Shown: positions 3,027 through 21,094 of the stretch, in pieces
Position numbering within the stretch: position 1 is the stretch's first letter
Layout of the letters: the number at the start of each line of letters is the position of its first letter
Origin: Candidatus Latescibacterota bacterium
Lineage (GTDB): Bacteria; Latescibacterota; UBA2968; UBA8231
Assembly (NCBI GenBank): GCA_965223905.1
Contig: CBDCXV010000010.1
Location: 1,120,001 to 1,184,000, forward strand
DNA length: 64,000 bases
Direction of reading: 5' to 3'
The notes under the pieces: generated by a model
The model's database searches: none
What the model saw: the letters and a program-made list of their open reading frames with translations, nothing else
Told to the model about the DNA's origin: nothing
Translations under genes and position numbers: made by a program

Positions 3027-5213
3027 TCAATATACCACGGAGAGAGTGCCGATTTGCGCGTCGTCCGTGGCGGCGTCCAGCGCCAGTCGGTACACGTAGG
3101 TCCCGGGGGCGACGAGCCGTCCGGAGCGGTCCCGACCGTCCCACCTGAAATCATCCTGACCGCTTCTGGACAGATTGGGTGGGAGCTCTCTGATCCGCGT
3201 GCCGGCGAGGTCGAAGATCACCAGCGATATCGGGCGGTCCACCGTTACGTCGCGCAGCCCGTACGAAATGTTGGCCGTGTCATTGATGCCATCTCCGTTC
3301 GGCGTGAAGGGATTGGGGAACACACCGATCCCCACCAACAGGTCGCCACCCACGGGGGTCGTCACGCTCAGGGTGTTGCTGGAAAACCGGTAGGTCGCAT
3401 CTCCCGGTTCGACCTGCTGTTTGACCTGGGCAGGATTGCCACTGTTGTACACCCATCCTCTGAATTCGGTGCCGAAGCGCAGCACCGCAATGTTGAAGCC
3501 GACCTCGATCCGCTTGGCACTGTCTCCTTTCCCCTTGAGCCGGGGAAAATGGATGACGATCCGGTCATTCAGTATGTCTGGCGGGTAACCCGTCGTGGCG
3601 TCAGGGTCCGTGTAGGCTCCCAGGTCTACCGCCACACCGTCCACCTCAACCGAGCGAACCGTGTCGACGCGCGCATGAGTGAGGATTTCCAGGCGATCGA
3701 AGCCCAGATTCTCATCCAAAAAAGTGGGACGCACGACGTAGGAGAAAGTCGTCGGTGAGAAGGAGTCCACCTCGGAGGGCCAGATCTCACCCGTGATCTT
3801 CTCCGCTGCGAAATCCGGCGATAGCTGTAGCGTTAGTTCATCGAGCCGCGGCGCGGCGTTGGCCGTAGCGAAGAGCTCGATCTCGATCTGCATGTACCGG
3901 CTCGACCCCAGAGAGAGAAGAGGCGTGCCGTCTGTCCAGTCTTCGGGGGCCTGGGTGCGGTCGCGCAGACCCGCCTCGAACTCATAGGGCGGCGACCACG
4001 AGCCCCAGTTGTCAATATCCTCGACCCGGACAGCTTCGGCTTGCATGACATTGGCAGTCCCTTCCCCCGACCCAAAAGACGATGTAGCGGTAATTTGGTC
4101 GTATTCCTTCTTGGAGACAGGGACGGGGTTGTCGTTTGGGTCTGATTTGAAATACAGTCTTGGATCCGGCGTGTTCCCCGCACGGGTGCGGATCTGCACC
4201 CGCGTTCCTTTCGGCATGTCGCCACTCCAGCGAATCTTGCCCCAATTGACCTTGGTCCCGAAGTCCACGATGCGGGATAGGAAGGCGGTTTCTCTGACAA
4301 ATCCCTCGCCGTACACCTCGAACTCGGCGATCTCCCAACCGCGTTGGGTGAGTACCCTCAACGTGAGAAAGCGGATGGACTGGGTCGGGAAGCGCAGGTC
4401 CACGACCACATCCTCGCCTTCCGTCTCGAGGCGCAGCACTGTTGGCAGGAAGGCCTTGTGGCTGTATGTCCAGATTCTCTCAGGATTCGGCTCGCAGGGG
4501 CCGCTGCGCTTCAGGGGATACGAGCTGTCGGCGACGCGGATTTCGTATTGGTCTACGAAATTGTCGGCAAAGCTCACCTTGCCGAAGGCCTCCTCTGGTG
4601 GTTTGGGATCCGCCAAACTCCGGATATACAGAAGACCGTCCTCGCTGCCGAGACGGGGATAGAAGCGGATGCGGTTGATCGGCAGATCTGCGCCCAGATC
4701 GATGACGGTCGGTGCCCCGTTCAGGTCGAAGCCGGCTGCCTGGGGATTGAGGAAAAACGCAGTCGCCGGATCTCCGTCGAACATCGGCTTGACCAACTTC
4801 CGGAACCCGTATTCGCGGCCGCAGTCTCGCGAAAACCAGACGTCCCCTCCAGTAAACGGCAGGGGAATCGTGTTTTCGGATGACTGGGGATCGGCCAGCG
4901 TCAGGTTGACCGTTGGGTCTAGAAACCGCGGTCTAAGGAAGCGGATTTTGCGGCCGCCGATGGTGGTGTCCGCGAAATCGACCATCGACTCCTCGCCGCC
5001 ACCGTATGGCGTGGTGATCACCGGAACCGCCCCCTCCAGATTCCCCTGTGCATCGAAGAGCTGGTACACCCCGGCATCCTCGGACAGGGCGACCTGCCAG
5101 GGGTTGCCATCCTCACCCCCAAGTCGGTACTCCGTTCCACCCGGCGCATCGGAGGCGCTCAGCAACAGACCGCCCAACCACAGCGCTGAGGATCGTCTGA
5201 TAAGCCGAGTCAT
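3027..5213 (-). CDS. Secreted protein with discoidin-like domain and C-terminal CHU_C/FlgD-Ig hybrid domain (paralogue 1)
   Basis: Signal-like MTRLIRRSSALWLGGLLLSAS after AGGAGG (alternative start 5282). IDLG..INRIRFYPR...EIAEFEVYG; C-terminus PNPFTPNGDGINDT...IFDLAG...WDGRD..G..VAPGTY...LSVVY. Confidence 0.8.
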   Translation of the reverse strand: MTRLIRRSSALWLGGLLLSASDAPGGTEYRLGGEDGNPWQVALSEDAGVYQLFDAQGNLEGAVPVITTPYGGGEESMVDFADTTIGGRKIRFLRPRFLDPTVNLTLADPQSSENTIPLPFTGGDVWFSRDCGREYGFRKLVKPMFDGDPATAFFLNPQAAGFDLNGAPTVIDLGADLPINRIRFYPRLGSEDGLLYIRSLADPKPPEEAFGKVSFADNFVDQYEIRVADSSYPLKRSGPCEPNPERIWTYSHKAFLPTVLRLETEGEDVVVDLRFPTQSIRFLTLRVLTQRGWEIAEFEVYGEGFVRETAFLSRIVDFGTKVNWGKIRWSGDMPKGTRVQIRTRAGNTPDPRLYFKSDPNDNPVPVSKKEYDQITATSSFGSGEGTANVMQAEAVRVEDIDNWGSWSPPYEFEAGLRDRTQAPEDWTDGTPLLSLGSSRYMQIEIELFATANAAPRLDELTLQLSPDFAAEKITGEIWPSEVDSFSPTTFSYVVRPTFLDENLGFDRLEILTHARVDTVRSVEVDGVAVDLGAYTDPDATTGYPPDILNDRIVIHFPRLKGKGDSAKRIEVGFNIAVLRFGTEFRGWVYNSGNPAQVKQQVEPGDATYRFSSNTLSVTTPVGGDLLVGIGVFPNPFTPNGDGINDTANISYGLRDVTVDRPISLVIFDLAGTRIRELPPNLSRSGQDDFRWDGRDRSGRLVAPGTYVYRLALDAATDDAQIGTLSVVY

Positions 5214-5275
5214 AGCTCTCTTTCCCTCCTGATTCCGACCCTTCGGGGCTGTGGCCTTGCACGCCATGACACGCC

Positions 5276-6268
5276 TTACCATTTCAGTACTTGCTCGATC
5301 TGCTTCTGCAGTTCGGTCTGCGCCACGGCGTGGATCTTCCGGGCTCGGTCCGTCCGGGCGAACTCCGCTACGTGACGCCGCGCCGCCCTCTCGTCTCCTG
5401 TCCGTTGGTAGACGTTCGCCAATGCCTGGTACACGTAGGGATCCTCCGGTGTCACCTCGAGGATTCTGCTCAGATGCTCAATGGCGGGGACGTACCGGCC
5501 CTGCCTCATCAGAAGCAACGCCAGACTCCAGCGAGCCCCGAGGTCATTCGGACTGTGCTCTACGGCTGAGCGCAGGTGCTTCTCCGCAAGATCCGTCCTC
5601 TCGGTCCGCCCCAATCGTACGGTCTCGCCGTCACCTTCTTCGAGCCTGATCAGCAGGTCCGCTATGCGGGTGCGGAGTTCCGGTTCTTGGGGGAACTCCT
5701 CCACCAAGGTTTTCCATTCTCCGATGGCGGCTTGCGTGTTGCCCAACCTCTGGTGCAGCCTGGCCAGCCGGTAGCGTACCGAACTCGAGTCCGGGGCCAT
5801 GGTCAGAGCGCGCCCGTAGGCCTCCGTCGCCGGTAACGGCCGGCCCGCCATCTCGTAGGCGTAGCCTAGTTGAGCCCACAGATCCGGCCACTGCGGCCGC
5901 CGGTCGGCGAGATCTTCAAAAACGGCTATGGCCTCGTCGTGGCGCTGCCTCCGGGCATAGGTCCTCGCCAGACGCAACCCGACCGACAGTGAATCCGGTT
6001 GACGAGCGAGAAATCTCCTGTACATCTCGATGGCCTCAGCCTGGTCCTGATCGTCGTACAACCTGGCCAGCCGCAACAAGGCCCCTTCGTGGTCTGCATG
6101 CCCTTCGAGGACCGACCGATACTCGCGGATGGCATGGGCCGTCATTCCTCGTCTTTCGTAGTCCTGACCGAGGCGGTAGTGCTGGCCGCCGTCCCTGAGT
6201 CGAAAAACAGCAGCCAGGCCTATCAGGCCGATCAGAATCGCCAGGACGGCGTAAGAGCGACGACGCAT
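5276..6268 (-). CDS. Tetratricopeptide-repeat protein with N-terminal membrane anchor
   Basis: N-terminal hydrophobic helix, then many LARLY/LARTY/LGYAY...A...Y..AL...P repeats. Confidence 0.85.
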   Translation of the reverse strand: MRRRSYAVLAILIGLIGLAAVFRLRDGGQHYRLGQDYERRGMTAHAIREYRSVLEGHADHEGALLRLARLYDDQDQAEAIEMYRRFLARQPDSLSVGLRLARTYARRQRHDEAIAVFEDLADRRPQWPDLWAQLGYAYEMAGRPLPATEAYGRALTMAPDSSSVRYRLARLHQRLGNTQAAIGEWKTLVEEFPQEPELRTRIADLLIRLEEGDGETVRLGRTERTDLAEKHLRSAVEHSPNDLGARWSLALLLMRQGRYVPAIEHLSRILEVTPEDPYVYQALANVYQRTGDERAARRHVAEFARTDRARKIHAVAQTELQKQIEQVLKW

Positions 6269-8956
6269 CTACTCAAGGCCGGCGAACACGGTGATGAAGC
6301 TCTGAGTAAGCGTCAGCGGAGCCCGCCCCCTCGGATCCCGGCGATCGATCTTCAGACCAAATTGGGTGATGAACTTGTACCCGAGGTAATCGGAGGCATT
6401 GGTGAACTGGCTGGCCGCGGCCACACCGTTGAAATCGTTGTCGTCCCTGATCAGATCATTCAGGAAGGTCAGTTCCAGTCCCGCCTGAAACGTAGTATGG
6501 CTCAACATGGGCAGCGCCAGGATCACGCCGCCGATTTCGGCCAGCTCCTCTCTTTTGTCAGTCGAGGCGAGATCGAGGGTCTGTTTTCGGTATTCGCTTT
6601 TCCAGCGGGGCTCGATCCACAGCCGGCCCAATTCGAAGCGATAGCTGGCTTTGTTGATCACGCCGAAGAAGTAATCGCGCTTGTTCAGATCCAGGACGTC
6701 GCGCTCACTCTGGTTCAGGCGCTGATGATAGAACTCCCATTTGAGAGAATTGACAGTACTCAAGCCGGCGTACTGATAATCGTGGCCGATCCAGAGAGAA
6801 TTCACCCAGGTATCCGGCGCTATCAGAGGATCGATGATTTTCGTCGCCTGCCCCAGGTGGACATCGACGTTTGGCAGAAATTGCAGGAGGTCGTTGGGGA
6901 TATCGTCCTTCACCGATTTCAACATGTCGAATAGCCTGAACCGACCGTAGCGGGGAAGGCTCCGGTCAACGGTGAGGAGAAGGTAGCTGATGTCATTTTT
7001 CTGGTCGGTGGAAATGAGCTCCTCACGCAGTACCCCGGCCATGAGTCGGATGCCCGGGGTCAGATGGGTCCCCCCATACACGTTGTACCCTTCGTGATCC
7101 CTGCGGTACGGAAAGTCCGGCTCCTCGTCGTTCTCGAACCGGTCCACCCAGACGTTGTTGTTGAGGTCGATGCCGAAGAGAAACTCGGGACGATCCACGT
7201 TGTGGCGCAGGAAAGCCTCGTCGTAGTCCGGCGTCAAATCGGGCAGGATGCGGTTGTCGTTCTGGTTGAAGTCCGAGATGAAATCATTGTTCTCGTCCCA
7301 GCCAGGAAAAACCGTGCGGTCACCTGCCGGATGGTCTCTGCGCTCGGTATCCGGATCCCTGTCCTGGTCGTCGTTGTCTTCCACGAATTCCACCGCGAAG
7401 ACGCGTTTATCCTCGTAATCGAAGCGGCCATCCTCGGCAGTGACGAAGGTGCGCGTGTTATAGCGGGGATCCATGCTGTAGGCTTCTCCAAAAACGAACC
7501 AGGGGTAGTCGGCTCGCGAGAGATTCACCATCCAGGCCGGAGCCGATCGCGCCCCTCTGATGCCGGACGAGAAAGAGTGATCCGCCGTGGATTTATTCGG
7601 GTATTTGGTGTAGGAATAACTCACATCGTATTCCCCGTAGAAGTCAAAGCCCTTCACCTGCCCTAGCTCCAGGGATATGCCCCAGATCTGTGTCGCTGTG
7701 GGCAGGCCGTACTCGAACTCCACGATCTGTAGATTGGTGTTGTCCTGAACGTTGCCCTCCGCCTGGGCGACCAGCAGCAGGACGGGCTCGTTGGTTCGAT
7801 TCAGCTGCTTGCTTGAGGTGACCCAGACCTGGTAGTCATTCCCCAGGACGAGTCGAAATGCGACCTTCTTGATTTCTTCCTTCGGCCTGCTGGCCCGGGT
7901 GGCAAAACTCGGGCCGTTGAAGTCGTACCGGAGGCGGATCTCTTCGGTGCCGTCGGCCGACAGGTGCCCCTCCTGTTCGAAACCACCTTCGATGATGGGT
8001 CCGAAGCGGATCCTTTTGCCCTCGTCTACGGTACCGTCCAGGTAGGTGATGATGATGTCCGATCCGGCCTGAAAGAAGGTGGCGCCACCGGCTCTGTCAT
8101 CGGGGGAATCATCCCTCAGCACGATCTCGATGAAATCGATGAATTCGTTCTGGTCAATCGTCAATTCCCCTGTAATAGGGTTGCCGGCAAACCCGGCGAT
8201 CAGCGTGTTGGAGTGGTGCGCATTGACGGACGTGAGCCCCAGTGTGGCAAAGTCTCCGACCTGAGCCGTGACCCGCCCACCGATCAGAGCGGTGGTATTC
8301 GTGACGAGTCGTTCGCCCCCGGTGGCCTCCCCCCCGGGCGAACTGAGCCGTGAGTATATGACCGTGGCCTGATATTTGTCGACAGCGTAGTCGAACTGCA
8401 CTCCGTCCCAAGCGGGTTTGGAGAAGGTCATCGGGGTGAGGGTGGTGCGCAGCTCATTGCCGATCGTCATGGCGTAATAGTGTTGCCCCTTGGTGTCTGT
8501 GGAGAGGAGGAGGCCGCTGAACCAGTTCTGGAAATTGGTTGACTTGAGCACAGAGCTGCCGAACTGCTCGGGCTGCCTCTGAGAATTGTTGAAGATCAGC
8601 CAACCCCGGGTGACGAAATTGCCGTAGAGATCGTAGAAGTAGTCGCCCTCGAGCGCCGAGTCCACGTATCTCTGGTAGGGGCTTCTGGCGTAGTTTGAGT
8701 ATTCCCACTGACGCCACCGGTATTCATTATAAAGCTCTTGGGGGATGTACCATTTCTTCACCGCTGGATCCAGGGCCCCGAACAGGACGCCCGGACCCTG
8801 CGGCTCATACGATAGTTCCCCACCCCGTTTCACCGAACCCAGGCGGGCACCGTAGTCCTGAGCCGATAGCTGCGCGGAGGCCAGCACGAAACTGCCCGTG
8901 ACACATACCAGGAGATGGACATATCTGCTCACGGCACGCCTCCTCTGTTCAACCAA
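6269..8956 (-). CDS. Large exported protein, probable outer-membrane beta-barrel with Asp-rich central region
   Basis: Signal peptide (LLVCVTGSFVLASAQLSAQD). C-terminal ~280 aa has alternating amphipathic beta pattern ending TQSFITVFAGLE. Central DNDDQDRDPD/WDENNDFISD/DLNNNVWVD acidic motifs. Confidence 0.65.
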   Translation of the reverse strand: MVEQRRRAVSRYVHLLVCVTGSFVLASAQLSAQDYGARLGSVKRGGELSYEPQGPGVLFGALDPAVKKWYIPQELYNEYRWRQWEYSNYARSPYQRYVDSALEGDYFYDLYGNFVTRGWLIFNNSQRQPEQFGSSVLKSTNFQNWFSGLLLSTDTKGQHYYAMTIGNELRTTLTPMTFSKPAWDGVQFDYAVDKYQATVIYSRLSSPGGEATGGERLVTNTTALIGGRVTAQVGDFATLGLTSVNAHHSNTLIAGFAGNPITGELTIDQNEFIDFIEIVLRDDSPDDRAGGATFFQAGSDIIITYLDGTVDEGKRIRFGPIIEGGFEQEGHLSADGTEEIRLRYDFNGPSFATRASRPKEEIKKVAFRLVLGNDYQVWVTSSKQLNRTNEPVLLLVAQAEGNVQDNTNLQIVEFEYGLPTATQIWGISLELGQVKGFDFYGEYDVSYSYTKYPNKSTADHSFSSGIRGARSAPAWMVNLSRADYPWFVFGEAYSMDPRYNTRTFVTAEDGRFDYEDKRVFAVEFVEDNDDQDRDPDTERRDHPAGDRTVFPGWDENNDFISDFNQNDNRILPDLTPDYDEAFLRHNVDRPEFLFGIDLNNNVWVDRFENDEEPDFPYRRDHEGYNVYGGTHLTPGIRLMAGVLREELISTDQKNDISYLLLTVDRSLPRYGRFRLFDMLKSVKDDIPNDLLQFLPNVDVHLGQATKIIDPLIAPDTWVNSLWIGHDYQYAGLSTVNSLKWEFYHQRLNQSERDVLDLNKRDYFFGVINKASYRFELGRLWIEPRWKSEYRKQTLDLASTDKREELAEIGGVILALPMLSHTTFQAGLELTFLNDLIRDDNDFNGVAAASQFTNASDYLGYKFITQFGLKIDRRDPRGRAPLTLTQSFITVFAGLE

Positions 8957-8979
8957 CCACGGTCGCCAGTGACCGTCGT

Positions 8980-11900
8980 CTAGTAAGCCACGGCGATTGA
9001 CCGCAGCAACGTGATATCACCAGAGTCGGTCTCCAGTCTTATCTGGCAGATGTAGATGCCGGGCAGCACTTTTTGCCCGCTTGTATCGGTGCCGTCCCAT
9101 GGCATGACCGCTCGTCCACTGCTGACCATCTGCGACCTTTCGTACACCCGGCTGCCATCGAGCTGGTAGATTCGCATCTCGACCCGGCGCCTGGCACTGA
9201 TATCGAGGATGCTCATGTGGACGAGGGTTTCGTCATTGATACCGTCACTGTTGGGCGAGAACGGGTTGGGGGCAATCTCGGACACCTCGATAGCCTTGGT
9301 CTCGAGCGGCAGACCGATGGAGAGCGTATTCCCTTCGCGCAGCTTCGAGGCATCACCGGCTTCGACGTCCTGCCAGAGGGCTGTCGGGTCGGCACCTCCT
9401 GCCGCGTTGCGGACGGCGACGGCGAGGGTGGTGCCGTTCCTGAAGACGGGGGCTGCAAAGCGCACCCGTATCTCAGGGCCTGCGCCGACAACGGTGCCCT
9501 GCTTGTCCCCGGTCAGCCGTCTGTGTCCTGTCGCATCTAGCGAATCACCTTCGACGCCAAAGGGGAACTGCGGCCCGTCGCCGAGCAACACCCGGAAATA
9601 CCGTATGGGCCCCCTCTCTTCTTCCTCCAGCTCGCCCCAGATTAACTGGGGGACCTTATCTCCGACTGAGTCGATTTTCGTCAACCGAATCCTGCCGCCG
9701 GTAATGATCTGGCGAAAGTACAGGATTTTTCCCTGCTCTTCCTCTTCGAGCCCTCCATAGGCTATTGCCGAGAGCGGCAGACCTTCATGGTCCACGGGAA
9801 CCTGGTCGCCGGCAACCGTGACCGCGTTGTATGTCCTCTTGGCCTCGCTCGTGGGGAGTATGTTGACGGTTGAAGAAAATCGCACTCGGATGGAATCGGT
9901 GGAGCTTGTCACTACCTGTAGCTCCTTGCCTTCATCGTCCACGAAGATGCCATCGACCCCGGAGGGGTGGAATTCCTGTTTCGCTGCGCCGGTTTGGGAG
10001 TCGACACCCACGTCGATCCCGAGCAGGTCAACGGGTACTCCCGACGGCATGACCAGCCGCATTTCATCGAAGCCCTTGCTTCGAGATCCCACCGGCCGTT
10101 CGACGAAATGGGTCAGGATGAAGGCCTCGAAGGTGTCCACCCGCCCCGCAACCGCAACCTGCGTCGGCCACAGCTCAGCGAGAAGGTCTTCGCCCACCAA
10201 CTCCGTGAGTCCTATGTCGATGGAGCTGATCGACGCTGCCGCCTCGCGGGCTCGGCTTTTCAGCTTGACCTGGAGCTGGAGAAACTTCCTTCCCCCGGGC
10301 GAGGTGACGGGCACCCCCGGATGCTCATAGTTGCGACTCCAGGCGCTCCAGCCGACGGTGGGTACGAAGGTCGTGTCGGACGTCCGCCAGGAATTGAGCA
10401 GACGATTCCATGTGGCAAGGTCGATCTCGTGGCCGGTATTCTTGTTGTAATAGCGAATTTCCTTCCCGAGAATGTCGCCCGTGCGAGTCTGGACCTCCAG
10501 ATCAGTTCCAGACGGGGTATCGCCGACCCATGAAATGCGGGCTGGAGTGCTCCCGGAGGGAATCTCGATCAAGTCCGAGGTCAATACCGCCTCGGCGACA
10601 TGTCCTCGCGAAAAGAGCCCGTATTCAGCGATGCAGGCACTGGTGTTCGCGAGGTTTTGCAGATCCTTCGTAGTGAAGATTGTCATCTCCAGAAACCGCA
10701 ACTGCCGGGGGGGATCGTACACGTCCATGAGTTGCTTGTAATTGTTCACCGAGTTTTCTGTGCGTTCCGGAGGACTGAGGGGTTCCCAATTGAACCCTCC
10801 GGTCGCGTCGCGGCTGCCGTCTGAGCTGCGGTGTATGTATCCGTCGAAGTCCTGGCACGCGCGACCGAGAATATCCACTGCCGATACACGGACGATGTCC
10901 AGCCAGAAGGTGGCACCGAGGTCGACCGTCAAAATCCCGGCAGGGGCCCCCGGAATCGGGATTTCGTGATCGTAGAAGGTGCTGAAGTCTCCGTCGAAGG
11001 CGAGGGGCGGAGGATTCAAAACGGACGGCACGAGGAGACTGAAATTGCCGCCACCTTCTAGAAGATTCGGGCTGATGTTGTCCCCGAAACCCCACACCTC
11101 GAGGTCGGCCAGGCGGGGGCGCTCGTGACGGTAGTAGACTTTGCTCCCCTGCCGTGCCGCCGGCAATCGGTCGTATTCGTCCTTTTCAATCGGTTCCTCG
11201 ACCCCTTCCGAATCCTTGACAAAATGGAGGACATCGCCTCGATCCCCACTGTCCAGAGCGGTCCATTCCGCCTCGGAAATCTCCGTGTGCCTGCCGCCCC
11301 TGGTGTCGGTCACCACGATCCGGATGGTTTCGACCATTCTGCCCGTCCACCCTGGGGCTGCTTCCAGATTGTCCTGCAGCGGAACCGAGAAAGTCCGGAG
11401 CGCGTTGGGCTTGTCCGTACCCCCCACAACCCGCAACTGCAGCTGCAGTGCATTCTGCGTGACCGGCTCCTGATGGAAAGAAGTCAAGACCTTGAACTGA
11501 CGGAACGGATCGCCCTCCCCCTCGTCTGCGAATTTGAGAACCAGCGAATCCACGGGCACGGTCCGACCGAGGTCCACTTCGATCCACCATCGCTCGATCG
11601 GGTCATCGGAATCCGGCTCCCAGCATGTCGCCTGGATGCCGTCGAGGATATTCGCGGCTGAGTCCGGGTTCGAGCCCACGCGACTGATGCCAGGTTTGAC
11701 GAAATACTCGTAGACGGGCACTTCCCGACCCCCTTTTTTCTGCGTCAGGATCTCGCCCAGCGGGTCGCGCTTCACCGTGCTGTCGATGTTGGGGATGGCA
11801 ATGTCGTCGTTCTGGCGTCTCAGGTCCGGGAGCTTCCGACGGAATGTATTGAGATCGTCGAGGACGTTGTATCGATCCCGGAAGCGCCACGGTTTGACTC

Positions 11901-12135: not shown

Positions 12136-12140
12136 GTGTG

Positions 12141-12146
12141 CCTCCT
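12141..12146 (-). promoter_or_regulatory. Shine-Dalgarno AGGAGG of the 12135 gene; on the + strand it forms the intron 5' exon end (IBS1)
   Basis: Minus strand reads AGGAGG-cacac-ATG. Plus-strand CCTCCT abuts the intron 5' GTGCG. Confidence 0.8.
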
Positions 12147-14072
12147 GTGCGCCGGTCACACCGGCGAGGTGTTAGAGGTGAAAGTCCTTTGTGTTGAAGG
12201 TGTAGCGAACCACGACAGCCCCGAGTCATGCGTGTGCGCCGGTAACGGCGCAGGCGAAGCGTTGGCAGGGGGGAGCGTAGGTCCGGTATGGAGCCGCGAA
12301 AGAAATGAATCCCTTTCGGGTGGCCGACCCGTTAGGAGGCGAGGGAAGGCCCCATCGGTGGGCGCGATATCGCCAGCGTCCATCGGACCCGGCGCGGTCA
12401 GAGGCCCGGCGCAGGCGCCCAGGCACCTCGTACGGGAACCGGGAGGTCCGGCGGTTGGCCCGGGGGGATGGTCCCCGGGTCCGCATCGGGAACCCGAAAG
12501 GGGCACGCCGATGACGCACGACCGCCGGAAGTCGGACAGCCCCATACAACCGGGGAACCCCGCGCACAAGGGGGGTCAGTCCGCTGCGCCCCCGGCGGAG
12601 CGGGGGGAGGGAAGGGGGCTGGGCAAGGGGAACGCGAGCGAGCACCCCAGGTCCCGGGCGCAGATCCGGACCGACCTGCACCAGGCGCTCGAACGCGTAC
12701 GACAAGCAGCGGTTCGAGACAGGGAGTTGCCGTTCACGACGCTGTGGCATCACGTCTAGACCATCGAGCGCCTCCGGGAGGCCTACCTCGGCCTCAAGCG
12801 GCAGGCCGCACCGGGGGTCGATCGCATGACGTGGAGCGAGTACGGGCAGGGGTTGGAAGCACGTCTTCAGGACCTGTCGGCCCGGCTCAAGCGCGGCGCG
12901 TATCGAGCCAAACCGGTCAAACGGACGTACATCCCGAAAGGAGACGGAGGCAGGAGACCGCTGGGCCTTGCGGCGCTGGAGGACAAGATCGTCCAGAAGG
13001 CGACCGTGGAGGTGCTCAATGCGGTCTACGAAGTCGATTTTCTGGGATTCTCGTATGGGTATCGACCGGGGCGCAGCCCGCACAGGGCGCTGGATGCGTT
13101 GGCGGTGGGGATCCAACACCGCAAAGTGAACTGGGTACTCGACGCGGACATCCGTGGGTTCTTCGACACCATCGACCACGAAGGGCTGATGAGGTTCGTC
13201 GAGCACCGTGTGCGGGACCGACGCGTGGTGCGCCACCTCAGGAAGTGGCTCAACGCGGGGGTCCTGGAAGAGGGCAGACGTATCGACGCAGAGGCAGGGA
13301 TGCCCCAGGGGGCCAGCATTTCGCCCCTGTTGGCAAACATCTACCTGCACTACGTCTTCGACCTGTGGGCGCAACGATGGCGAAAGCGACGCGCGCAAGG
13401 GGAGGTACTCCTGGTGCGCTACGCGGACGACCTCGTGGCCCGCTTTCAACACCGAGCCGACGCCGAGGCGTTCGGCGCCGACCTGGCCGCGCGGCTGGCG
13501 AGGTTTTCCCTGCAGCTGCACCCGGACAAGACGCGACGGATCGAGTTCGGGCGCTTTGCCGCGGAAAACCGGCGCCGACGGGGCGAAGGGAAACCCGAAA
13601 CGTTCGATTTTCTCGGGTTTACCCACAGCTGCGACCAGACGCGCCGGGGCAAGTTCATCGTCCTGAGACAGACGGCCAAGGAGCGGATGCGGCGAAAGCT
13701 CAAAGAGGTCAAGGCGATCCTCCAACGGCGGATGCATGACCCCGTAGCCGAAGTGGCGTGCTACCTCCGCCGCGTGATCACCGGGCACCTGAACTATATG
13801 GCGTGCCCCGGAATGGTCCGGCGCTGTGCGCGTTCATCAAGGGCATCGCCATCCATTGGTAGCGGGCCCTCAAGCGACGGAGCCACAAAACCAGGGTCAC
13901 GGGGCGGCGCATGAAGGATCTCTGGTACCAACTGTTGCCTCCTCCGCGCATCACTCACCCCTATCCCGAACAGCGCTTTGCCGTCATGACCCGAGGCAGG
14001 AGCCCAGTGCGGTAACTCCGCTCGTTGGGATCTGTGGAGGGGGTGGTCAGTAATGGTCATTCCTACTCCGAC
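12147..14072 (+). mobile_element. Group II intron (IIB-type, resembles bacterial class E), inserted antisense to the host operon
   Basis: 5' GTGCG at 12147 followed by GGTGAAAGTCC. Domain V GAGCCCAGTGCGGTAACTCCGCTCGTTGGGATC from 14000; domain VI ending CCTACTCCGAC at 14072; internal RT ORF. Confidence 0.9.
12511..14015 (+). pseudogene. ltrA: Group II intron reverse transcriptase/maturase, inactivated
   Basis: AAPGVD, YIPKGDG..RPLG, GFSYGYRPGRS, DADIRGFFD, GMPQG..ISPLLANIYL, RYADD, FDFLGF. In-frame TAG at 12757-12759, a 1-nt frameshift near 13797 (GHLNY|YGVP) and a second TAG at 13860-13862. Tail ...PRITHPYP...SPVR* ends at 14015. Confidence 0.9.
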
Positions 14073-14092
14073 GCGGAACTGCTGACGTGGCG

Positions 14093-15745
14093 TCAACCTT
14101 CCAAAAGACTTTCGGGCAGTGCTTCGGCAAGACGGGACTCGAACACCCTGACCTCGGCGGCGTATTTGTCGCGCAGCTGTCCCAGCAACTCCTCGAAGCC
14201 TTCCTTTGCTTTTTGCACCAGCAGCAGCTGCGTGGCCTGTTGCTTCACCGTTGCATACGGTTGCTGCGTCTGTGGCTCCTTGCGCAGCACGGTGAATATC
14301 GACCATCCCCCCTTCACTTCGACGGGACCGACGATCTCCCCCTCAGGTGCTGCCATGATGGCCGCCAAGAGCCTGGGATATATGATCCTTTCGCGATTAT
14401 GAAAGTGAAATTGGCCCGTGGACTCCCGGGCCCCCTCCCTCAAGCTGCTGATCGTGAAGTCCTCCCAGGGCTCTCCCGCTACCAGCCGCCGATGCACCTC
14501 CTCCGCCTCGTCCCTGGTGGAGGACAGCACCTCCTTGATATAGACCGAAAGCTCGGTCATGAACAATTCGGGGTGGCTGTCGTAATACTCCCTCACTTGC
14601 TCCTCGGATAGGCTTACGCGTTCGGGCACGGCGGACTTCCTCATCGCTTCGAGCAGGGTTTGCTCCACGGTTTGCTCCTCGAACTCGCGGACGTCAAGTC
14701 TGTCGTACAACCCGGCCTGCCGGGCGGCCGCGTCGAACAGGGCGGGACGGAGGACCAACTCCTCGAGGGTGGAGACGGTCTTTGCGCTGTCCGCCAGCTG
14801 TTGGAAATGGTCCGGCCGCCCCATGACTTCGTAGGCCTCGGCGACCGTTATCTCGCCACCCTCGAATCCGTACAGTACGACCCCGCTCTTTTCCGCTGCA
14901 GCGGTCTCCTTGTCGCGATAGGCCTCCCGGAGTTCGGTCAATCCCTCCGGATGAAGCCTGACCCGAAAGGACTCCCTGAGCGCTTCGAAGTGCTCCCCTG
15001 CCAGCTGGGATATTTTGCCCCCCAGGAGGTGATGCCTTGCCGCAAACCGGTACTTTTCAAACGGTACCGGGCGTTCTTGTGTGAATCGGAGGACGGACCA
15101 ATCGTTCGCTACACGCTGAGGTTTTGAGACCTCACCCAGGGGCAGAGAGACGAAGAGATCCGGTGGGATGCCGACCTTCGCTATATTGTACCGGTCCACC
15201 CACGTAAAGTGCCCTCCCGCGCTGGCGGAGCGCTCCTCCACGGAATACTCACGGGCTACTTCCTCGAAAGGACGGCCCGCCTCCAGTTCACCCACGACCT
15301 TGTCGATGTCTGCTCGAGTTTTCACCACAATCGCGGTGAACCAGCGTTCGATCTGGAAGCCGTGATGGGCGGAGAATGCGCGCAGCTCCTCCTCCGGGAC
15401 CTCGATTTTCGACAGGATCTTGTTATAGCGGTAGAGGGCCCGCACCTTCGTGTCGACCACATTCCGGACCGACTCCCGCACCGTCAAGGTCGTGTCCAGA
15501 CCACGGGATTTGGCCTCCATCAGCAACAGGCGGCCGTCTATGAGGGACTGCAGGTAGTGTCGCCGTGCTGCCTCGCCTGTTTTCTCTGTGCGCAATCCAG
15601 GCGCCAAACGGCTGACGAATTCTCGCAAGGCGGAGGGCGTAATCTCGTGCGATCCCACCACGGCCACCACGTCGTCCTGCTTCGGTTGACTGCAGCAGAC
15701 CAGCAGGCTTGTGAAAACGGCTATGGCGATCTGGACGTAAACCAT
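14093..15745 (-). CDS. Lipoprotein foldase with two PpiC/parvulin-type PPIase domains (PrsA/SurA-like)
   Basis: Lipobox-like LLVCC; VAVVGSHEIT; FEEVAREYS..SASAGG; EVSKP; second domain GEIVGPVEVKGGWSIF. Confidence 0.8.
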   Translation of the reverse strand: MVYVQIAIAVFTSLLVCCSQPKQDDVVAVVGSHEITPSALREFVSRLAPGLRTEKTGEAARRHYLQSLIDGRLLLMEAKSRGLDTTLTVRESVRNVVDTKVRALYRYNKILSKIEVPEEELRAFSAHHGFQIERWFTAIVVKTRADIDKVVGELEAGRPFEEVAREYSVEERSASAGGHFTWVDRYNIAKVGIPPDLFVSLPLGEVSKPQRVANDWSVLRFTQERPVPFEKYRFAARHHLLGGKISQLAGEHFEALRESFRVRLHPEGLTELREAYRDKETAAAEKSGVVLYGFEGGEITVAEAYEVMGRPDHFQQLADSAKTVSTLEELVLRPALFDAAARQAGLYDRLDVREFEEQTVEQTLLEAMRKSAVPERVSLSEEQVREYYDSHPELFMTELSVYIKEVLSSTRDEAEEVHRRLVAGEPWEDFTISSLREGARESTGQFHFHNRERIIYPRLLAAIMAAPEGEIVGPVEVKGGWSIFTVLRKEPQTQQPYATVKQQATQLLLVQKAKEGFEELLGQLRDKYAAEVRVFESRLAEALPESLLEG

Positions 15746-15929
15746 GCTTGTGCTCTCCTCACGCGTTGCGTGAATAGGTGACTGAATGCTACCGTACGAC
15801 CACTACCTGCTTTTCCCAGCCTATCCCTTCCTTACCCACCAATTGGTGGAATCGTACTCGATATTGTACCCTCAGAACAAGATGCCAAGAGTACCGGCTT
15901 AGGTCGTCAATCCGCGAATCGTATCGCCT

Positions 15930-18785
15930 TCAGCGCCGGCGCGCCCCAAGCAGGTGCTCCAGTTGCCTGCGAGTCCCACTCAACGACGGATCGACCTCGA
16001 GGGCTGCTCTGTAGGCGTCGATGGCCTCGTCCATCTTGCCCTGGGCGGCGTAGACCTCACCGAGGTTGCTGATGGTCGGGGCCAGTCCCGGTCTCAACCG
16101 TATAGCTTTCTGGTAGGCCTGCACGGCTGCTTCGAGTAGCCCCGACTCGAAATACGCCCGCCCCAAATCACTGAGGGCCTCCACGAGGCTCGGGTCGACT
16201 TGACCGGCCTTAATGTAGGCCTCTATGGCCCGCGTGAGATACCCCTTGTAGTGGAACGCGGCACCCATTCCATAGTGCGCCATACCATGGCCGGGATCGA
16301 GCTTGACGGCCTTCCCGAATGAGGCAAGGGCCTCGTCGTAGCGCCCTTGCTTGACGTATGCCCGACCCAGGCGGTAGCGCCATTCCGCTACATCCGGATA
16401 CTGCCTGATCTTGTCCTCGTACAGGTCCACCTGGTCCTGCACAGGCTGCAGCCGTTCGAAAATCCGTTGCTCCCGTTCAGACGCCTCTCGTTGAGCTTCA
16501 ATCTCGTACAACCGGACCAGCTGCAGGTGCGGCGCCGGCGCGTAGGGAGCCACCTTCGCCGCCCTCTTGAACGCTTTTTCTGCGGCCACCGTGTTCCTGA
16601 GGCGCAGATAGGCGAGTCCCATCCGGGCGTAACTTTGCCAGGGCGATGGATCCAGGGCGATGGACCGCTTCAGTGATTCTATGGCCCTTTCAGGCTCGTC
16701 GAGAGCCAGATAGACCGCCCCCAAGAGCGCCTGGATTTCCGCCCATGAGGAATCCAGTTGGACCGCCTCTTCGAGGACAGATGCTGCTTCCCTGGGTCTG
16801 CCCAGACCGGCATGGAGAGTGACCCCCAGGGCGTAATAGGCCTGCATGTAGTCGGGACGCAGCTGAATCGCACCCCTCAACAAGCCCAGGGCCTCCTCGT
16901 GACGTCCCTGGTCGTAGAGCCCGGTCCCGCGTGCGTAATGCTCGTCCGCCGTCAGCCTGGAGTTCACGACGTGGGTGCTCGGCACCTCCGGCTCGGGCCC
17001 CAGCGCCGATGTTGTGACCTCAGTCGCGACAGGCTGCTGCTTCGCGCCCGGCCCGGCGTACATGGCGATCACATCTTCCACTCCCTCCCGCACTACGAGA
17101 TAGTTGCGCAGCTGTGGATCCTCGAGCACCTGCTGACTCCCCGATGGCCAGCGAATTTCTATGCGGTCCACCCGCTCGTTCCCGCCCAGGCCGAAGACAA
17201 GCCGCGGATCGTGCTGTGACTGGAACCCGTATCCGCGATGCACCTCCCGCACCTGAGCCAAAGTGCCGGCCACCACCCGTACCCGCGCTCCGATGGCGTC
17301 CCGGTTGCTCTGGGCACCCTCGAGCTGCAGACCGAACCAGTTGTTGCCGTTGCCGCCGTCGTTCCGCAGCAAGGACGGCTTGTCGTTCAGGTTCATCAGC
17401 AGCACATCCACGTCGCCATCGTTGTCGTAGTCCCCGAGAGCCGCGGCCCTGGTCACCTTGGCGATGGCCCAGCCGGGACCGGTCTCTCGCCCTGCTTCGG
17501 CATAGCGGCCGTGCTCATTGTGATAGATCAGGTTGCGCTGCGCATAGCGCATGCCGGAGGGGTACTGCTCCAGCTGCGGGTACAGATGCCCGCAGGCTGT
17601 GAACAGGTCGAGCCAGCCGTCGTTGTCGTAGTCGAAAAAGCCGTTGCTCCAACACAGCAGAGGGCGCACCATCTCGAACAGGCCGGCAGCGAACGTCATG
17701 TCCGCAAAGGTGCCCTCGCCCTGGTTCTGGTAGAGGGTGTTCACGTCGTCGGAGAAATTGCTGACTACCAAGTCCAGATCCCCGTCGTTGTCGTAATCAC
17801 CGCTGGCCGCGCCCATGCCGGCCTGGCTCCTGCCGTCTTCGCTGTAGGCCACGCCGGCCACAACCCCGACCTCCGCCAATTGCCAGTCCCCGTCGTTGCG
17901 CAATAGCAGATTGGGCGCCGTATCATTGGCCACGTAAATGTCGAGATCCCCGTCATCGTCGTAGTCGCCGAAGACGACTCCGAGTCCCGGATGGGCCACC
18001 CGGTCCAAGCCTGTGGCCGCGCTCATATTCGTGAAGCTGCCGTCCTTGTTGTTCCGGTAGAGCACGTCTGGTTGGTGCGGCATGGCATCGGGACCGGCCA
18101 TGACGTCGAGCCCCTTGTAGAGTCCAATACCCGGCGGGTTCGCCAGGTCGAACCCGAGATAGTTGGTGACATACAGATCCAGAAAGCCATCCCCGTCCAC
18201 ATCCCCGAAGGCTGCGCTCGATCCCCATCTCTCATCGGCCACACCGGCGCTCTCGGCGAGCTCGACGAAGCCGCCATCACCGTCGTTGCGATAGAGCCGG
18301 TTGGGTCCCCAGTAAGTCACGTAGAGGTCGGGATCACCGTCATTGTCGTAGTCTCCCACGGCACAACCCATCCCCCAGCCGGTGTGGCCGATGCCGGCCT
18401 TTTCGGTCACCTCCCGGAAGACACGCCTGTCCTCGCCCTCCCGTCCTGGCGCTGGTCGATTGTGGTACAGTCTGTTCGTGGCACCTTCCACGGGACCGTC
18501 CAGCCTCGTGCCGTTGACGACGAACAGATCCAGCCACCCGTCGACGTCGTAGTCCAGGAAGGCGGCCCCGGCCGACATGCTTTCCAGCACGTACATCTGA
18601 GTCGGGCCGCCAGACACGTTCTCGAAATCCAGTCCCGCCTCCTCACTTACATCCACGAACTGGACGTGTCCCCGTGTCGACACGCCATCCATCCCGCCGT
18701 CGTCTTGCCCCGAGCGTTGGGAACAACCCGGGACGAGGATGAGGCCGATGAGACAGGTTATTGACTTGGCTTTCAGGTTGGACAT
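15930..18785 (-). CDS. CRTAC1-like FG-GAP propeller + ASPIC/UnbV domain + C-terminal TPR array, lipoprotein
   Basis: Start reassigned to MSNLKAK (AGGAAG upstream, lipobox VPGC). Repeated GDYDNDGDxDL; NRDAIGARV...DPRLVFGLG...IEIRWPSG (ASPIC/UnbV); about 9 TPRs. Confidence 0.88.
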   Translation of the reverse strand: MSNLKAKSITCLIGLILVPGCSQRSGQDDGGMDGVSTRGHVQFVDVSEEAGLDFENVSGGPTQMYVLESMSAGAAFLDYDVDGWLDLFVVNGTRLDGPVEGATNRLYHNRPAPGREGEDRRVFREVTEKAGIGHTGWGMGCAVGDYDNDGDPDLYVTYWGPNRLYRNDGDGGFVELAESAGVADERWGSSAAFGDVDGDGFLDLYVTNYLGFDLANPPGIGLYKGLDVMAGPDAMPHQPDVLYRNNKDGSFTNMSAATGLDRVAHPGLGVVFGDYDDDGDLDIYVANDTAPNLLLRNDGDWQLAEVGVVAGVAYSEDGRSQAGMGAASGDYDNDGDLDLVVSNFSDDVNTLYQNQGEGTFADMTFAAGLFEMVRPLLCWSNGFFDYDNDGWLDLFTACGHLYPQLEQYPSGMRYAQRNLIYHNEHGRYAEAGRETGPGWAIAKVTRAAALGDYDNDGDVDVLLMNLNDKPSLLRNDGGNGNNWFGLQLEGAQSNRDAIGARVRVVAGTLAQVREVHRGYGFQSQHDPRLVFGLGGNERVDRIEIRWPSGSQQVLEDPQLRNYLVVREGVEDVIAMYAGPGAKQQPVATEVTTSALGPEPEVPSTHVVNSRLTADEHYARGTGLYDQGRHEEALGLLRGAIQLRPDYMQAYYALGVTLHAGLGRPREAASVLEEAVQLDSSWAEIQALLGAVYLALDEPERAIESLKRSIALDPSPWQSYARMGLAYLRLRNTVAAEKAFKRAAKVAPYAPAPHLQLVRLYEIEAQREASEREQRIFERLQPVQDQVDLYEDKIRQYPDVAEWRYRLGRAYVKQGRYDEALASFGKAVKLDPGHGMAHYGMGAAFHYKGYLTRAIEAYIKAGQVDPSLVEALSDLGRAYFESGLLEAAVQAYQKAIRLRPGLAPTISNLGEVYAAQGKMDEAIDAYRAALEVDPSLSGTRRQLEHLLGARRR

Positions 18786-19012
18786 ACTTCCTGGCCCAGG
18801 ACATTCATCTTTCGTCGCCATAGTGATCCTATACAGCCTCTTAAGTAATCGCTGCCTGTAAGCGCAACTATTCATGACGCCGTGTGCCATGTATGACAGT
18901 CGTGGTTTCTTATGTATTGTGTGACGCATGAAATAGAAACGCCTGGCTCGATAACACCGTGTGCTGCGCCCCTCGGCTTGGCGCCATTTGACGAAGGTAG
19001 TCAGTTGCAAGA

Positions 19013-21094
19013 ATGAGTGCCGCTCTGCGTTGCTCCCTCCTGTTTCTGCTCCTCTTTTCCCTCGTCCCGCGATCCGGTCTTGCGCTCGAGACCTTCACGA
19101 CCGGCGAGAGCGGACAGTTCGACTGGCACGGTGAAGGAATTGCGCCGGTCGACGTCATCGATGCGCTGCATCGCGATGTCCTCAATCGGCGCACGAGGGA
19201 TCGCGACAGCCTCGTGGTGGGCAATGCGCCCGGGAACCTGATCGCATTCGACCCGGCGAATTTCCCGGATGCCGTCCACATTCTGCGCCTCGGAGATGAT
19301 GAGAACATCGCCCTCGGCACCATTGAGCGAGGCGGCAGTATCCGGTCACCCAATGTCTCCTTTCTCAAGCCCGGTACGCTCGAGGAGCTCCTTTCGGACG
19401 AGCCGGAGGGGGTGTTGAAGGCCTTCGAACGCAAGAGTCCCGATAACCCTCTGGGCGTTGTCATCTTTCTCGACCTCGGGGCGCGCATAGGCGTCGAGAA
19501 AATCCGCTTCTATCCGCGCAACACCATCCACTCATCTCCAACCACCCCCTTCGAGAACGACTTCCTGAGGGCTTTCGACCTGTCCATCAACGACGGGATT
19601 ACCCTGACGGAAAGCGGGAGTCCGATTTGGGGTGTGCCGGTGGTGTCCGAAAAAGACAACCAGAATACCGTGGCGGTGGTAGAGTTGGAGCCACCAAGGG
19701 TGATCCGGCACATACGCCTCGGCGCGCGCTCGGTCGTTGACTTCGAGATCGACGAGATCGAAGTAATCGGCAAGGGCTTCCTGCCTTCTGCTAGCTACAT
19801 CTCCGATATTTTCGATGCCGGACAACCCGCTTTGTGGGGAAACCTGCGCTGGACTGAAACCGTGATCGGCGATCCCAGGCTCTCCCGGATGGCAATTCGG
19901 ACGCGTACCGGCAGCGATTCTTCCTACTTCGTCTACAACCGCAAGCGGGTCGGCGATCCACTGGCTCCAGAGATCGCCACCTCCGTGCAGGACCCGACGC
20001 GTGAAATGGATCTGGCCGAGTACATGGGCCATTGGCCGCAGCGCGATAGCAGAAACCGCGACTGGACAGCCGGCTCTGTGACAGACGATCAGGTCAACTG
20101 GAGTGGGTTCAGCGCCCCTTTCCCGGAGCATGCGGCCAACGGGCCCGGGCTGCCCGTGCGCTCTCCCAGTCCCCGCCGATACTTCCAGTTTCAGGTGGAC
20201 TTTCTCAGCAGCGATCTGGAGGCCGCCCGCGTTCTGCGGTCTGTCTCCCTCGATATGCTGAGGCAGGCCATGGCCGATTCCCTCATCGCCGAGATCCACC
20301 CGCGAGAGGTCGAGGTGTCCGAGGTTGTTTCCTTCACCTACGCTGTGCGCACGTGCATGCAGACCGACGGCGGCCTCGGTTTCGACATCATCGAGGTCCG
20401 CACACCCGCCCGAGTGCACAGCATCGATGCGGTGAGCATATCAGATTCGAACGGAGAGCTTGTAGCGGCCCGTGCATTCGCCGGTGTCGACGATCCCTCC
20501 ACGACTGCCGGAATTGCCATCCTCTCGGTGGCTGAGGACCGCTTCATTCTCAGCCTTCCCCCGCTCCGCGAAGACGACACGCTCATACAGATTCGATTCA
20601 GCACCGAGGTCCTGAGCTACAGCACGACCTTTGCCGGATTGGTCAGACTCACCGGCGAGCCGGAAATCGCGCAGACGGTCACCTCGGGGGATGCGACATT
20701 TCTTGGCGAGGATGATGATCCCGACTTTTCAGGCACGACGGTTCTCAGTCCTCTTGTACTTGGGGGGGGCCAATTGCTCGACAATGTGGAGCTGGCGCCC
20801 AATCCGTTCACACCGAATGGGGACGGTGTCAACGACCAGCTTTCCGTCCGCTACAGCCTGCTTTCTCTTGCAGCCGGCCGCCCCGTCGGTATCAGTGTCC
20901 ACGACCTGAGCGGCCGTCTCGTACGGGTCATTCACGACAGCCCCGAGCGCAGCGGCCGTTACCGCGACAAGACCTGGGATGGACGGGATGCCCGGGGTCA
21001 ACTGGTGGCGTCGGGACTGTACATCGTGCGAATCTCGGTGGCAGGAGACGCTCTCGAAGAGGAACAGGCCCGGGTAGCAGCAATCGCGTATTGA
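19013..21094 (+). CDS. Secreted protein with discoidin-like domain and C-terminal CHU_C/FlgD-Ig hybrid domain (paralogue 3)
   Basis: Signal peptide; LDLG..IGVEKIRFYPR, EIDEIEVIGKG, RTRTG, WSGFSAP, SPSPRRYFQF; PNPFTPNGDGVND...VHDLSG...WDGRD..G..VASGLY...AAIAY. Confidence 0.8.
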   Translation: MSAALRCSLLFLLLFSLVPRSGLALETFTTGESGQFDWHGEGIAPVDVIDALHRDVLNRRTRDRDSLVVGNAPGNLIAFDPANFPDAVHILRLGDDENIALGTIERGGSIRSPNVSFLKPGTLEELLSDEPEGVLKAFERKSPDNPLGVVIFLDLGARIGVEKIRFYPRNTIHSSPTTPFENDFLRAFDLSINDGITLTESGSPIWGVPVVSEKDNQNTVAVVELEPPRVIRHIRLGARSVVDFEIDEIEVIGKGFLPSASYISDIFDAGQPALWGNLRWTETVIGDPRLSRMAIRTRTGSDSSYFVYNRKRVGDPLAPEIATSVQDPTREMDLAEYMGHWPQRDSRNRDWTAGSVTDDQVNWSGFSAPFPEHAANGPGLPVRSPSPRRYFQFQVDFLSSDLEAARVLRSVSLDMLRQAMADSLIAEIHPREVEVSEVVSFTYAVRTCMQTDGGLGFDIIEVRTPARVHSIDAVSISDSNGELVAARAFAGVDDPSTTAGIAILSVAEDRFILSLPPLREDDTLIQIRFSTEVLSYSTTFAGLVRLTGEPEIAQTVTSGDATFLGEDDDPDFSGTTVLSPLVLGGGQLLDNVELAPNPFTPNGDGVNDQLSVRYSLLSLAAGRPVGISVHDLSGRLVRVIHDSPERSGRYRDKTWDGRDARGQLVASGLYIVRISVAGDALEEEQARVAAIAY

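Follow-up and report, generated by a model that had tools for sequence, protein, structure and literature searches.

Three paralogues beside an outer-membrane barrel

The DNA analyzed here, hereafter the window, is a stretch of 64,000 nucleotides (nt) from a Latescibacterota genome of 7.9 Mb, 64% G+C and 11 contigs (C10:1120001-1184000). It carries three paralogous genes, designated A, B and C, whose products each finish in a C-terminal domain of about 108 residues ending Val/Ala-Tyr, the Tyr-ended tail. The main point of this study is that this tail, which resembles the type-B C-terminal domains (CTDs) of type IX secretion system (T9SS) cargo, belongs to one protein family and has a fixed partner in a new outer-membrane barrel of about 900 residues. 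The original prediction, made from the letters of the window, had named the 895-aa barrel protein only in passing and taken the tail for a sorting signal read by the SprA homologue. The genes in question are the following (aa, amino acids; ORF, open reading frame).

3027..5282, minus strand: A-type paralogue, 751 aa as longest ORF; tail coded at 3030-3359
6269..8956, minus strand: outer-membrane barrel, 895 aa, belonging to no named family; proposed as the cognate partner of the Tyr-ended tails
8980..12159, minus strand: B-type paralogue, 1059 aa, with an F5/8 type C (discoidin) domain; tail coded at 8983-9312
19013..21094, plus strand: C-type paralogue, 693 aa; tail coded at 20762-21091
26986..33183, plus strand: SprA/Sov homologue, 2065 aa (TIGR04189, 606.8 bits), flanked by lptF/lptG, obg and dprA

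The three ORFs lie where they had been placed and are paralogous over their whole length, B and C showing 26% and 31% identity to A in the alignment. The motifs read by eye in the earlier work (W..G..RW, RTR.G, W..WS, EI.P, GFD, PNPF.PN.DG.ND and WDG.D..G..V..G.Y) are conserved alignment columns, and all three proteins do finish in a hydrophobic-Tyr sequence (LSVVY, IAVAY, AAIAY). The further description of the proteins stood in part. A discoidin domain was recovered in the 1059-aa paralogue (F5_F8_type_C, 37.2 bits), with no match in the other two, and the proposed signal peptides correspond to N-terminal hydrophobic, signal-like stretches as judged by eye. The likelier start of the A-type gene is the Met that precedes its hydrophobic stretch, about 69 nt downstream of the longest-ORF start. 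The B-type gene ends 23 nt upstream of the barrel gene.

The A-type protein is all-beta and secreted. An AlphaFold2 model of the C-type protein, from a 46-row alignment, is a chain of beta-sandwich domains (predicted local distance difference test score, pLDDT, 89.9; predicted template-modelling score, pTM, 0.82) whose Foldseek matches, all at low template-modelling (TM) scores, are to adhesin-type, Ig-like, FN3-like and galactose-oxidase chains. The best explanation of the family as a whole is that it comprises secreted, all-beta, lectin- or adhesin-like proteins of Latescibacterota.

The Tyr-ended tail and the family that bears it

A hidden Markov model (HMM) built from the three window tails was searched against the genome's 41,702 six-frame ORFs and, at E 1e-3 or better, matches 168 of them, far beyond chance. 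In 150 the matched domain ends no more than 20 residues from the C-terminus; in the HMM search itself, the count of matches that reach the very last residue is 50. These ORFs fall into two classes, with 22 belonging to neither. In the Tyr class (56 ORFs) the match runs through the last residue, as it does in all three window proteins, and the ending is [VILMA][AV] followed by Y (54), F (1) or W (1). In the type-A-like class (90 ORFs, coding for unrelated proteins) only the core is matched and the ending is of the ...LL[KR] kind. Fifty-one of the 55 genome ORFs of at least 300 aa that end in [VILMA][AV]Y are members of the Tyr class, and an aromatic last residue is found in all 46 ORFs whose TPNGDG.ND-like motif is suitably spaced from the C-terminus. 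Homology between the two classes is clear (hhalign probability 99.6%, E 1e-23); they differ by a 7-residue TPNGDGI insert, present in the Tyr class only, and by the last strand.

Database models were compared on 47 Tyr-ended tails and on 20 K/R-ended tails sampled evenly from 86 of at least 200 aa.

Pfam CHU_C: Tyr-ended 47/47 at E 0.01 or better (best E 4.9e-15); K/R-ended 11/20
Pfam FlgD_ig: Tyr-ended 44/47; K/R-ended 20/20
Pfam Por_Secre_tail: Tyr-ended 3/47; K/R-ended 14/20
TIGR04131 (type B): Tyr-ended 40/47 at E 0.01 or better; K/R-ended, not among the 12 families listed
TIGR04183 (type A): Tyr-ended 31/47; K/R-ended 19/20

The kinship of the tail to T9SS sorting domains is thus borne out by CHU_C and TIGR04131. 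The idea that it is a hybrid of a CHU_C and a FlgD domain is not: we rejected it, as the CHU_C, FlgD_ig and Por_Secre_tail models cross-match both homologous tail classes, which form one fold family. Since FlgD_ig matches every sampled type-A-like tail, a match to it marks the fold and not a flagellar function. With whole proteins as queries, CHU_C scores 33.3, 31.4 and 24.9 bits on A, B and C, and FlgD_ig 29.8, 17.4 and 27.4 bits. As the Pfam gathering score is 27 for either family, CHU_C lies above it for A and B and FlgD_ig for A and C. The CHU_C match is nearly end to end (profile positions 3-82 of 86). The two NCBIfam models, TIGR04131 (cut-off 35) and TIGR04183 (cut-off 23), stay below their cut-offs; the latter gives 16.7 bits on C and no match at E 0.01 on A or B. 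The NCBIfam scan also matches the C-terminal end of PorU.

From these profile matches, the tail appears to be a divergent T9SS type-B (CHU_C) CTD. Its lineage mark is the invariant C-terminal Tyr, in the setting ...V-x-V-[A/V]-Y. Five tails carried on other bodies (P0037, P0072, P0074, P0075 and P0076) end in Arg. Four of these are annotated as CHU_C, and P0074's own tail is type-A-like; hence, the Tyr end marks the present group rather than CHU_C tails generally. According to excerpts of PMC12618676, five motifs within the last 100 residues are needed for secretion without setting shuttle specificity. Conservation among the aligned tails of the genome extends to the PNPF.PNGDG.ND and WDG...G.Y blocks.

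The Tyr-ended tail belongs to a single expanded protein family. When the tail was removed and the bodies alone were used as queries, the searches recovered 51 of the 56 members of the Tyr class but no protein with a type-A-like tail (0 of 90); the body of the A-type protein is common to 42 other Tyr-class members. Two of the five proteins missed are fragments adjoining body fragments. Such a distribution does not suit the general, lineage-specific sorting signal that had been proposed. Tail-only ORFs of 87 and 145 aa adjoin body-only ORFs at C10:1947416-1948673 and C8:42111-43654, and these pairs are probably frameshifted or broken copies. Elsewhere, two B-type genes 7 kb apart (C10, ~1983 and ~1990 kb; locus L009, tails at 6383-6712 and 13419-13748) encode proteins of 477 and 938 aa whose last 110 residues are identical, which points to a recent segmental duplication with truncation.

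The family has an internal order. A FastTree tree of the 53 Tyr-class proteins of at least 450 aa resolves three clades of 13, 16 and 12 members, with local support values of 98-100%, and leaves 12 divergent members. The window paralogues fall one in each clade (A, B and C) and so represent an old conserved set rather than recent duplicates. A full set, with one gene from every clade, accompanies 1-3 barrel genes in 10 of the 25 gene clusters; the window paralogues form one of these 10 A+B+C triads. Divergent clusters have up to three tandem barrel genes with one tail gene, a layout that recurs in distant families. It was seen at C1:1494-1502 kb, C10:2104-2113 kb and C2:278-295 kb, and at loci L140 and L141. 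The two layouts mirror each other (one barrel and three tails, three barrels and one tail), which hints at a three-fold assembly.

The barrel and its linkage to the tail

The 895-aa protein encoded between the A- and B-type genes has no family match in Pfam or NCBIfam. The genome holds 35 paralogues of it; a Pfam search with 31 of them returned only two weak SlpA_C matches (E 1e-4), and the family profile found nothing meaningful among PDB sequences (best E 0.092) and no relation to the window SprA (probability 0.5%). In the ESM Atlas the matches were to unnamed clusters, the nearest named one being the TonB-receptor-like DUF6029, at 0.88 and below the level at which we counted a match. The AlphaFold2 model from a 31-row alignment (pLDDT 75.9, pTM 0.73) shows 23 or more strands that are at least 10 residues long. 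Its Foldseek matches are to large outer-membrane barrels only (SlpA, MtrB, FimD, LptD, PapC, SprA, SusC), at TM-scores of 0.35 or less, and SusC and TonB-dependent receptor barrels figure among these weak matches. The family is a large one: among 1.84 billion cluster representatives it has 1301 matches at E 0.001, 947 at 1e-10 and 462 at 1e-30.

In the window genome, 48 of the 56 Tyr-tail genes lie within 10 kb of a barrel paralogue, as against 3 of the 90 type-A-like genes; the zones within that distance of a barrel gene make up only 6.6% of the genome. The consistent partner of the Tyr-tail proteins is therefore the unannotated 895-aa barrel, and not sprA; it is probably a dedicated one. A T9SS setting is indeed present, as had been supposed: besides SprA (606.8 bits against a TIGR04189 cut-off of 200), the genome encodes PorU (617.4 bits, cut-off 420) and PorV (47 bits, cut-off 27), adjacent to each other on another contig. 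Nevertheless, nearness to sprA was discarded as a meaningful link. The gene is single-copy, lies between lptFG and obg/dprA, and adjoins just one of about 25 gene clusters, so its proximity to paralogue C looks incidental.

The linkage extends beyond this genome. Scanning one genome per species yielded 565 stretches coding for a relative of the barrel; the best 80 of these gave 75 loci, which a count of record prefixes assigns to about 36 assemblies. Their titles name Latescibacterota or Latescibacteria and, in some cases, Gemmatimonadetes, Gemmatimonadota or Gemmatimonadaceae, with single records titled Handelsmanbacteria, Woeseia and 'uncultured bacterium'. Each of the 75 loci from these best 80 stretches has between 1 and 4 Tyr-class tail genes no more than 10 kb away, 3 being the commonest number, and the 194 full tails found there end in Tyr without exception.

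We also surveyed an even sample of 121 genomes of the phylum, among which related genomes are not independent. The barrel is present in 72 of them. All 40 other genomes sampled from the family of the window have it, and none of those from three sister families, f2-f4, does (0/29, 0/13 and 0/2). A best tail match at E 1e-18 or better was found in 71 of the 72 barrel-positive genomes and in 0 of the 49 barrel-negative ones, at a threshold that was set after seeing the data; the gap on which it rests is wide within the class (5e-27 vs 2e-16) and narrow for distant families (9.5e-19 vs 5.9e-18). Genomes of f2-f4 have weak tail matches only (1e-12 to 2e-16). Of 13 barrel loci from five distant families, 7 are preceded, about 1 kb upstream and in the same orientation, by a gene for a Y-ended tail. 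At L131, L138 and L139 (genomes G003 and G012) a K-ended, type-A-like tail gene lies within 10 kb of the barrel, at L138 directly upstream and on the same strand; the barrel family may thus not be bound to one tail type everywhere.

SprA was found in 116 of the 121 genomes, including all 44 of f2-f4. No abundance of the tail in genomes without sprA came to light, a comparison that has little power as so few genomes lack it. Four of the five genomes with no SprA match bear the barrel. Three of these (G015, G046 and G048) carry PorU, while G044, which is 68% complete, has neither PorU nor PorV. We considered G015 (96% complete) as a counter-example, since it holds three tandem barrels and a Tyr-tail gene and gave no SprA match either with the family model or with the window protein. 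It was set aside as it also has PorU and PorV, adjacent to each other; its missing SprA is probably an assembly gap.

Other genes of the window belong to the same string or interrupt it.

256..2994, minus strand: fused membrane/spermidine-synthase-like protein (NF037959, 115.9 bits), at the downstream end of the gene string
5276..6268, minus strand: TPR protein, 330 aa, between the barrel gene and the A-type gene (TPR_19 109.5 bits, and other Pfam models)
12181..14072, plus strand: complete group II intron (D1-D4 12181-12407, reverse-transcriptase ORF 12826-13914, D5-D6 13998-14072)
14093..15745, minus strand: PpiC-type peptidyl-prolyl isomerase, SurA-like, 550 aa (Pfam Rotamase_2 75.2 bits, Rotamase 47.7 bits)
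15930..19010, minus strand: FG-GAP/ASPIC beta-propeller and TPR protein, 1026 aa as longest ORF (FG-GAP_3 147.2 bits, UnbV_ASPIC 77.3 bits, TPR models)

PpiC and TPR proteins had been proposed as co-encoded helpers, and as far as linkage goes this was borne out: 11 of 18 PpiC paralogues and 8 of 17 TPR paralogues lie within 10 kb of a barrel gene, compared with the 6.6% of the genome that does so. The figure for ASPIC paralogues is 14 of 49. The PpiC-type isomerase is likely a periplasmic helper, and the FG-GAP/ASPIC protein probably carries a lipoprotein signal, judged by eye. Membership of the 256..2994 protein in the cassette is doubtful, 3 of its 9 genome paralogues being near barrel genes. 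ORFs resembling GldK (of the FGE-sulfatase type), far under the GldK cut-off, stand at the edges of three barrel/tail cassettes (C11:1107530-1107895, C10:1852707-1853108 and C2:283274-283996) and may represent a further accessory gene. The group II intron (RF02005 163.5 bits; RF00029 34.2 bits, below the Rfam gathering score of 40; TIGR04416 315.7 bits) is not part of the tail/barrel system. It occupies, in antisense orientation, the space that separates the PpiC and B-type genes, and may break co-transcription of the cassette.

Two further gene groups were recorded in the window, both on the minus strand. At 52301-56708 there is a metal ABC uptake operon (ZnuA, ABC ATPase) both of whose ABC-3 permeases end in Fe_dep_repr_C (65.5 and 41.1 bits), the metal-binding domain of iron-dependent repressors, here at the C-terminus; the fusion is unusual. 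At 39396-48756, two paralogous NPCBM_assoc proteins are encoded beside an outer-membrane efflux protein, two ABC-2 permeases, a HEAT-repeat protein and an ABC ATPase.

Proposed export and capture, and comparison with known systems

How might tail and barrel work together? The mechanism that we regard as most likely, and to which we would give an even chance, is that SprA exports the proteins and the cognate barrel then holds them. Sec export would bring A, B and C into the periplasm, and their tails would direct them through the SprA translocon; the roughly 900-residue barrel from the same cassette would then capture them and hold them at the cell surface. The barrel would thereby take the role that falls to the 14-stranded PorP/SprF proteins for the type-B cargo of Bacteroidota, with periplasmic help possibly coming from the PpiC isomerase and the TPR/propeller proteins of the cassette. 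Precedents exist for several of these elements. Excerpts of PMC9143113 describe how, in Bacteroidota, type-B CTD cargo is secreted along with PorP/SprF-like barrels, which are its adjacent cognate partners, 14-stranded proteins of the FadL type that also anchor it; PorE is said there to carry TPR and beta-propeller domains, and a peptidyl-prolyl isomerase to associate with SprA.

A number of observations weigh against this proposal, for which all evidence is computational. The barrel is no relative of PorP/SprF, being about three times longer with its 23 or more long strands; no homology to TIGR03519/PF11751 was found, and the best genome-wide match to TIGR03519 reaches 17.4 bits (cut-off 90.55) at the PorV gene. 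GldL, GldM and GldN models (TIGR03513, TIGR03517, TIGR03523) had no match in the genome, in searches run without a positive control, and GldK appears only below threshold (TIGR03525, 92.5 bits vs a cut-off of 350). If the T9SS motor is truly missing, SprA-dependent export becomes less certain. The tail itself scores under the TIGR04131 cut-off of 35 on A (24.9 bits in the whole protein, 30.3 in the isolated tail). With 51 of 56 copies on one family, it may be a family-specific assembly domain and not an export signal. Nor is the linkage complete, since 8 of the 56 Tyr-tail genes are more than 10 kb from any barrel gene, and 6 of the 13 distant-family barrel loci have no Y-ended neighbor (3 have a K-ended tail gene instead, 3 have none). 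Finally, co-occurrence with SprA does not discriminate, since SprA is nearly universal in the phylum. Prediction of a complex between barrel residues 100-895 and the tail gave no answer (score 0.00, mark 0.32) and counts neither for nor against binding.

One could also envision the cassette as a nutrient-capture and uptake unit with a role like that of SusC/SusD loci: the barrel would be a transporter, the three lectin-like proteins its surface binding subunits, and the many copies would serve different glycans. This is a tentative reading, compatible with export via SprA and holding on the barrel. The existence of about 25 diverged copies in one genome fits it, as do the discoidin domain of the B type, the adhesin- and lectin-like beta-sandwich chains and the occurrence of SusC and TonB-dependent receptor barrels among the weak fold matches, to which the DUF6029 cluster (0.88) adds a lead only. 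On the other hand, Pfam searches found no plug, TonB-box or TonB_dep_Rec match in the barrel, and no glycoside hydrolases among the cassette genes of the window.

We think it unlikely that the barrel is itself the exporter, working like an usher or a two-partner system to carry its Tyr-tailed neighbors across the outer membrane independently of SprA. The ...V-x-V-A-Y strand would then be a strand-insertion or barrel-recognition signal and PpiC a periplasmic chaperone. The alternating hydrophobic C-terminus of the tail and its final aromatic residue would, in our reading, resemble an outer-membrane beta-signal. The barrel is large, its nearest folds include the ushers FimD and PapC along with LptD, MtrB and SlpA, and its genes have been amplified together with those of the cargo; cassettes contain a SurA-like PpiC, and the motor genes were not found (with the GldL/M/N searches lacking a positive control). 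However, the tail is a folded Ig-like domain homologous to T9SS CTDs rather than a bare strand, three of the four barrel genomes without SprA carry PorU (the gap in G015 being probably one of assembly), and no exporter resembles the barrel at a TM-score above 0.35.

Slightly less probable still is the proposal from which this work started, namely that SprA reads the tail directly as a lineage-specific sorting signal, with PpiC and TPR proteins as helpers and the barrel without a specific role. The T9SS-related tail, the presence of SprA, PorU and PorV, and the enrichment of PpiC and TPR paralogues in cassettes all stand from that proposal, along with the 6 kb that separate sprA from paralogue C. 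What speaks against it is that only one of some 25 clusters adjoins the single sprA gene, that the 44 genomes of f2-f4 have SprA without a strong Tyr-type tail, and that the tail follows the barrel instead and is confined to one protein family; neither the hybrid domain nor the general signal nor the sprA proximity found support. Least probable, and rather remotely so, is that the tail is a structural Ig-like domain of FlgD_ig type with no sorting or anchoring role, its linkage reflecting co-duplication of unrelated neighbors: FlgD_ig matches 44 of 47 tails, the tail keeps to one family, and within-genome linkage is partly inherited because cassettes duplicate as units, but the terminal Tyr is invariant in 194 of 194 relatives though tails in the genome's own alignment average only ~38% column identity, the tail always stands at the extreme C-terminus, no FlgD N-terminal domain is present, and the linkage is kept in distant families whose barrels have diverged much further.

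Taking capture on the barrel together with a role in nutrition, we tentatively suggest that Latescibacterota might harbor a distinct branch of the T9SS, in which a new family of ~900-residue barrels stands in for the small PorP/SprF shuttles and the C-terminal Tyr labels cargo for that barrel. On the same tentative footing, the mirrored layouts could reflect a three-fold barrel-cargo assembly, a modular glycan-capture device amplified about twenty-fold. Such a device, made from secretion-system parts, might be a functional counterpart of polysaccharide utilization loci. How, and by which outer-membrane partner, type-B cargo is recognized is presented as an active question in excerpts of PMC9143113 and PMC12618676. 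The T9SS is still mostly described as a trait of Bacteroidota; excerpts of a 2016 survey report that 60 of 97 Bacteroidetes genomes have it and that no other clade does (PMC4793230), and in the library searched we found no paper joining 'Latescibacter*' with 'type IX secretion' or 'T9SS'. Here is a whole phylum where a type-B-like tail has a different and much larger partner family. The terminal Tyr is a simple invariant residue open to mutation, and hundreds of natural tail-barrel pairs can be used for co-variation analysis. Should the pairing prove physical, it would broaden the range of ways known for holding secreted proteins at the cell surface and would account for much of the surface proteome of this abundant, uncultured phylum.

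Each of the known systems evoked above shares some features with the present one. With the FlgD Ig-like domain (PF13860) the tail has in common the WDG.D..G..V..G.Y core, at scores near the gathering score (29.8 and 27.4 bits), but there is no N-terminal domain and no flagellar context, and full-length FlgD equivalogs reach 20-22 bits vs cut-offs of at least 230. SusC/SusD loci likewise combine many diverged copies of large-barrel genes with genes for surface-binding proteins. In our case, however, TonB-dependent receptor and SusD homology is lacking and the binding proteins have a secretion-type tail in place of lipoprotein signals. Type-A CTDs (TIGR04183/Por_Secre_tail) belong to the same beta-sandwich superfamily and are represented in this genome by about 90 such proteins, together with the PorU-PorV pair; the window tails differ from them in having the TPNGDGI insert, in ending in Tyr in place of ...LL[KR] and in not being linked to diverse cargo.

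A further analogy is with the type-B CTD and PorP/SprF systems exemplified, in excerpts of PMC9143113 and PMC12618676, by SprB-SprF of Flavobacterium johnsoniae and PG1035-PorP-PorE of Porphyromonas gingivalis. Here as there, a CHU_C/TIGR04131 domain of about 100 residues bears FTPNGDGxND and WDG...G.Y motifs, the cargo gene lies beside an outer-membrane barrel gene, there are many such pairs per genome and SprA is present; TPR and propeller accessory proteins near the cassette recall PorE. There are differences as well. GldKLMN were not found here (GldK being sub-threshold and the GldL/M/N searches without a positive control), and the tail ends invariably in Tyr, while the five other-body tails examined end in Arg. 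Unlike PorP/SprF, which are 14-stranded, FadL-type proteins of about 300 residues, the partner is a ~900-residue barrel of no named family, and the cargo is a single family, arrayed in A+B+C triads and found outside Bacteroidota.

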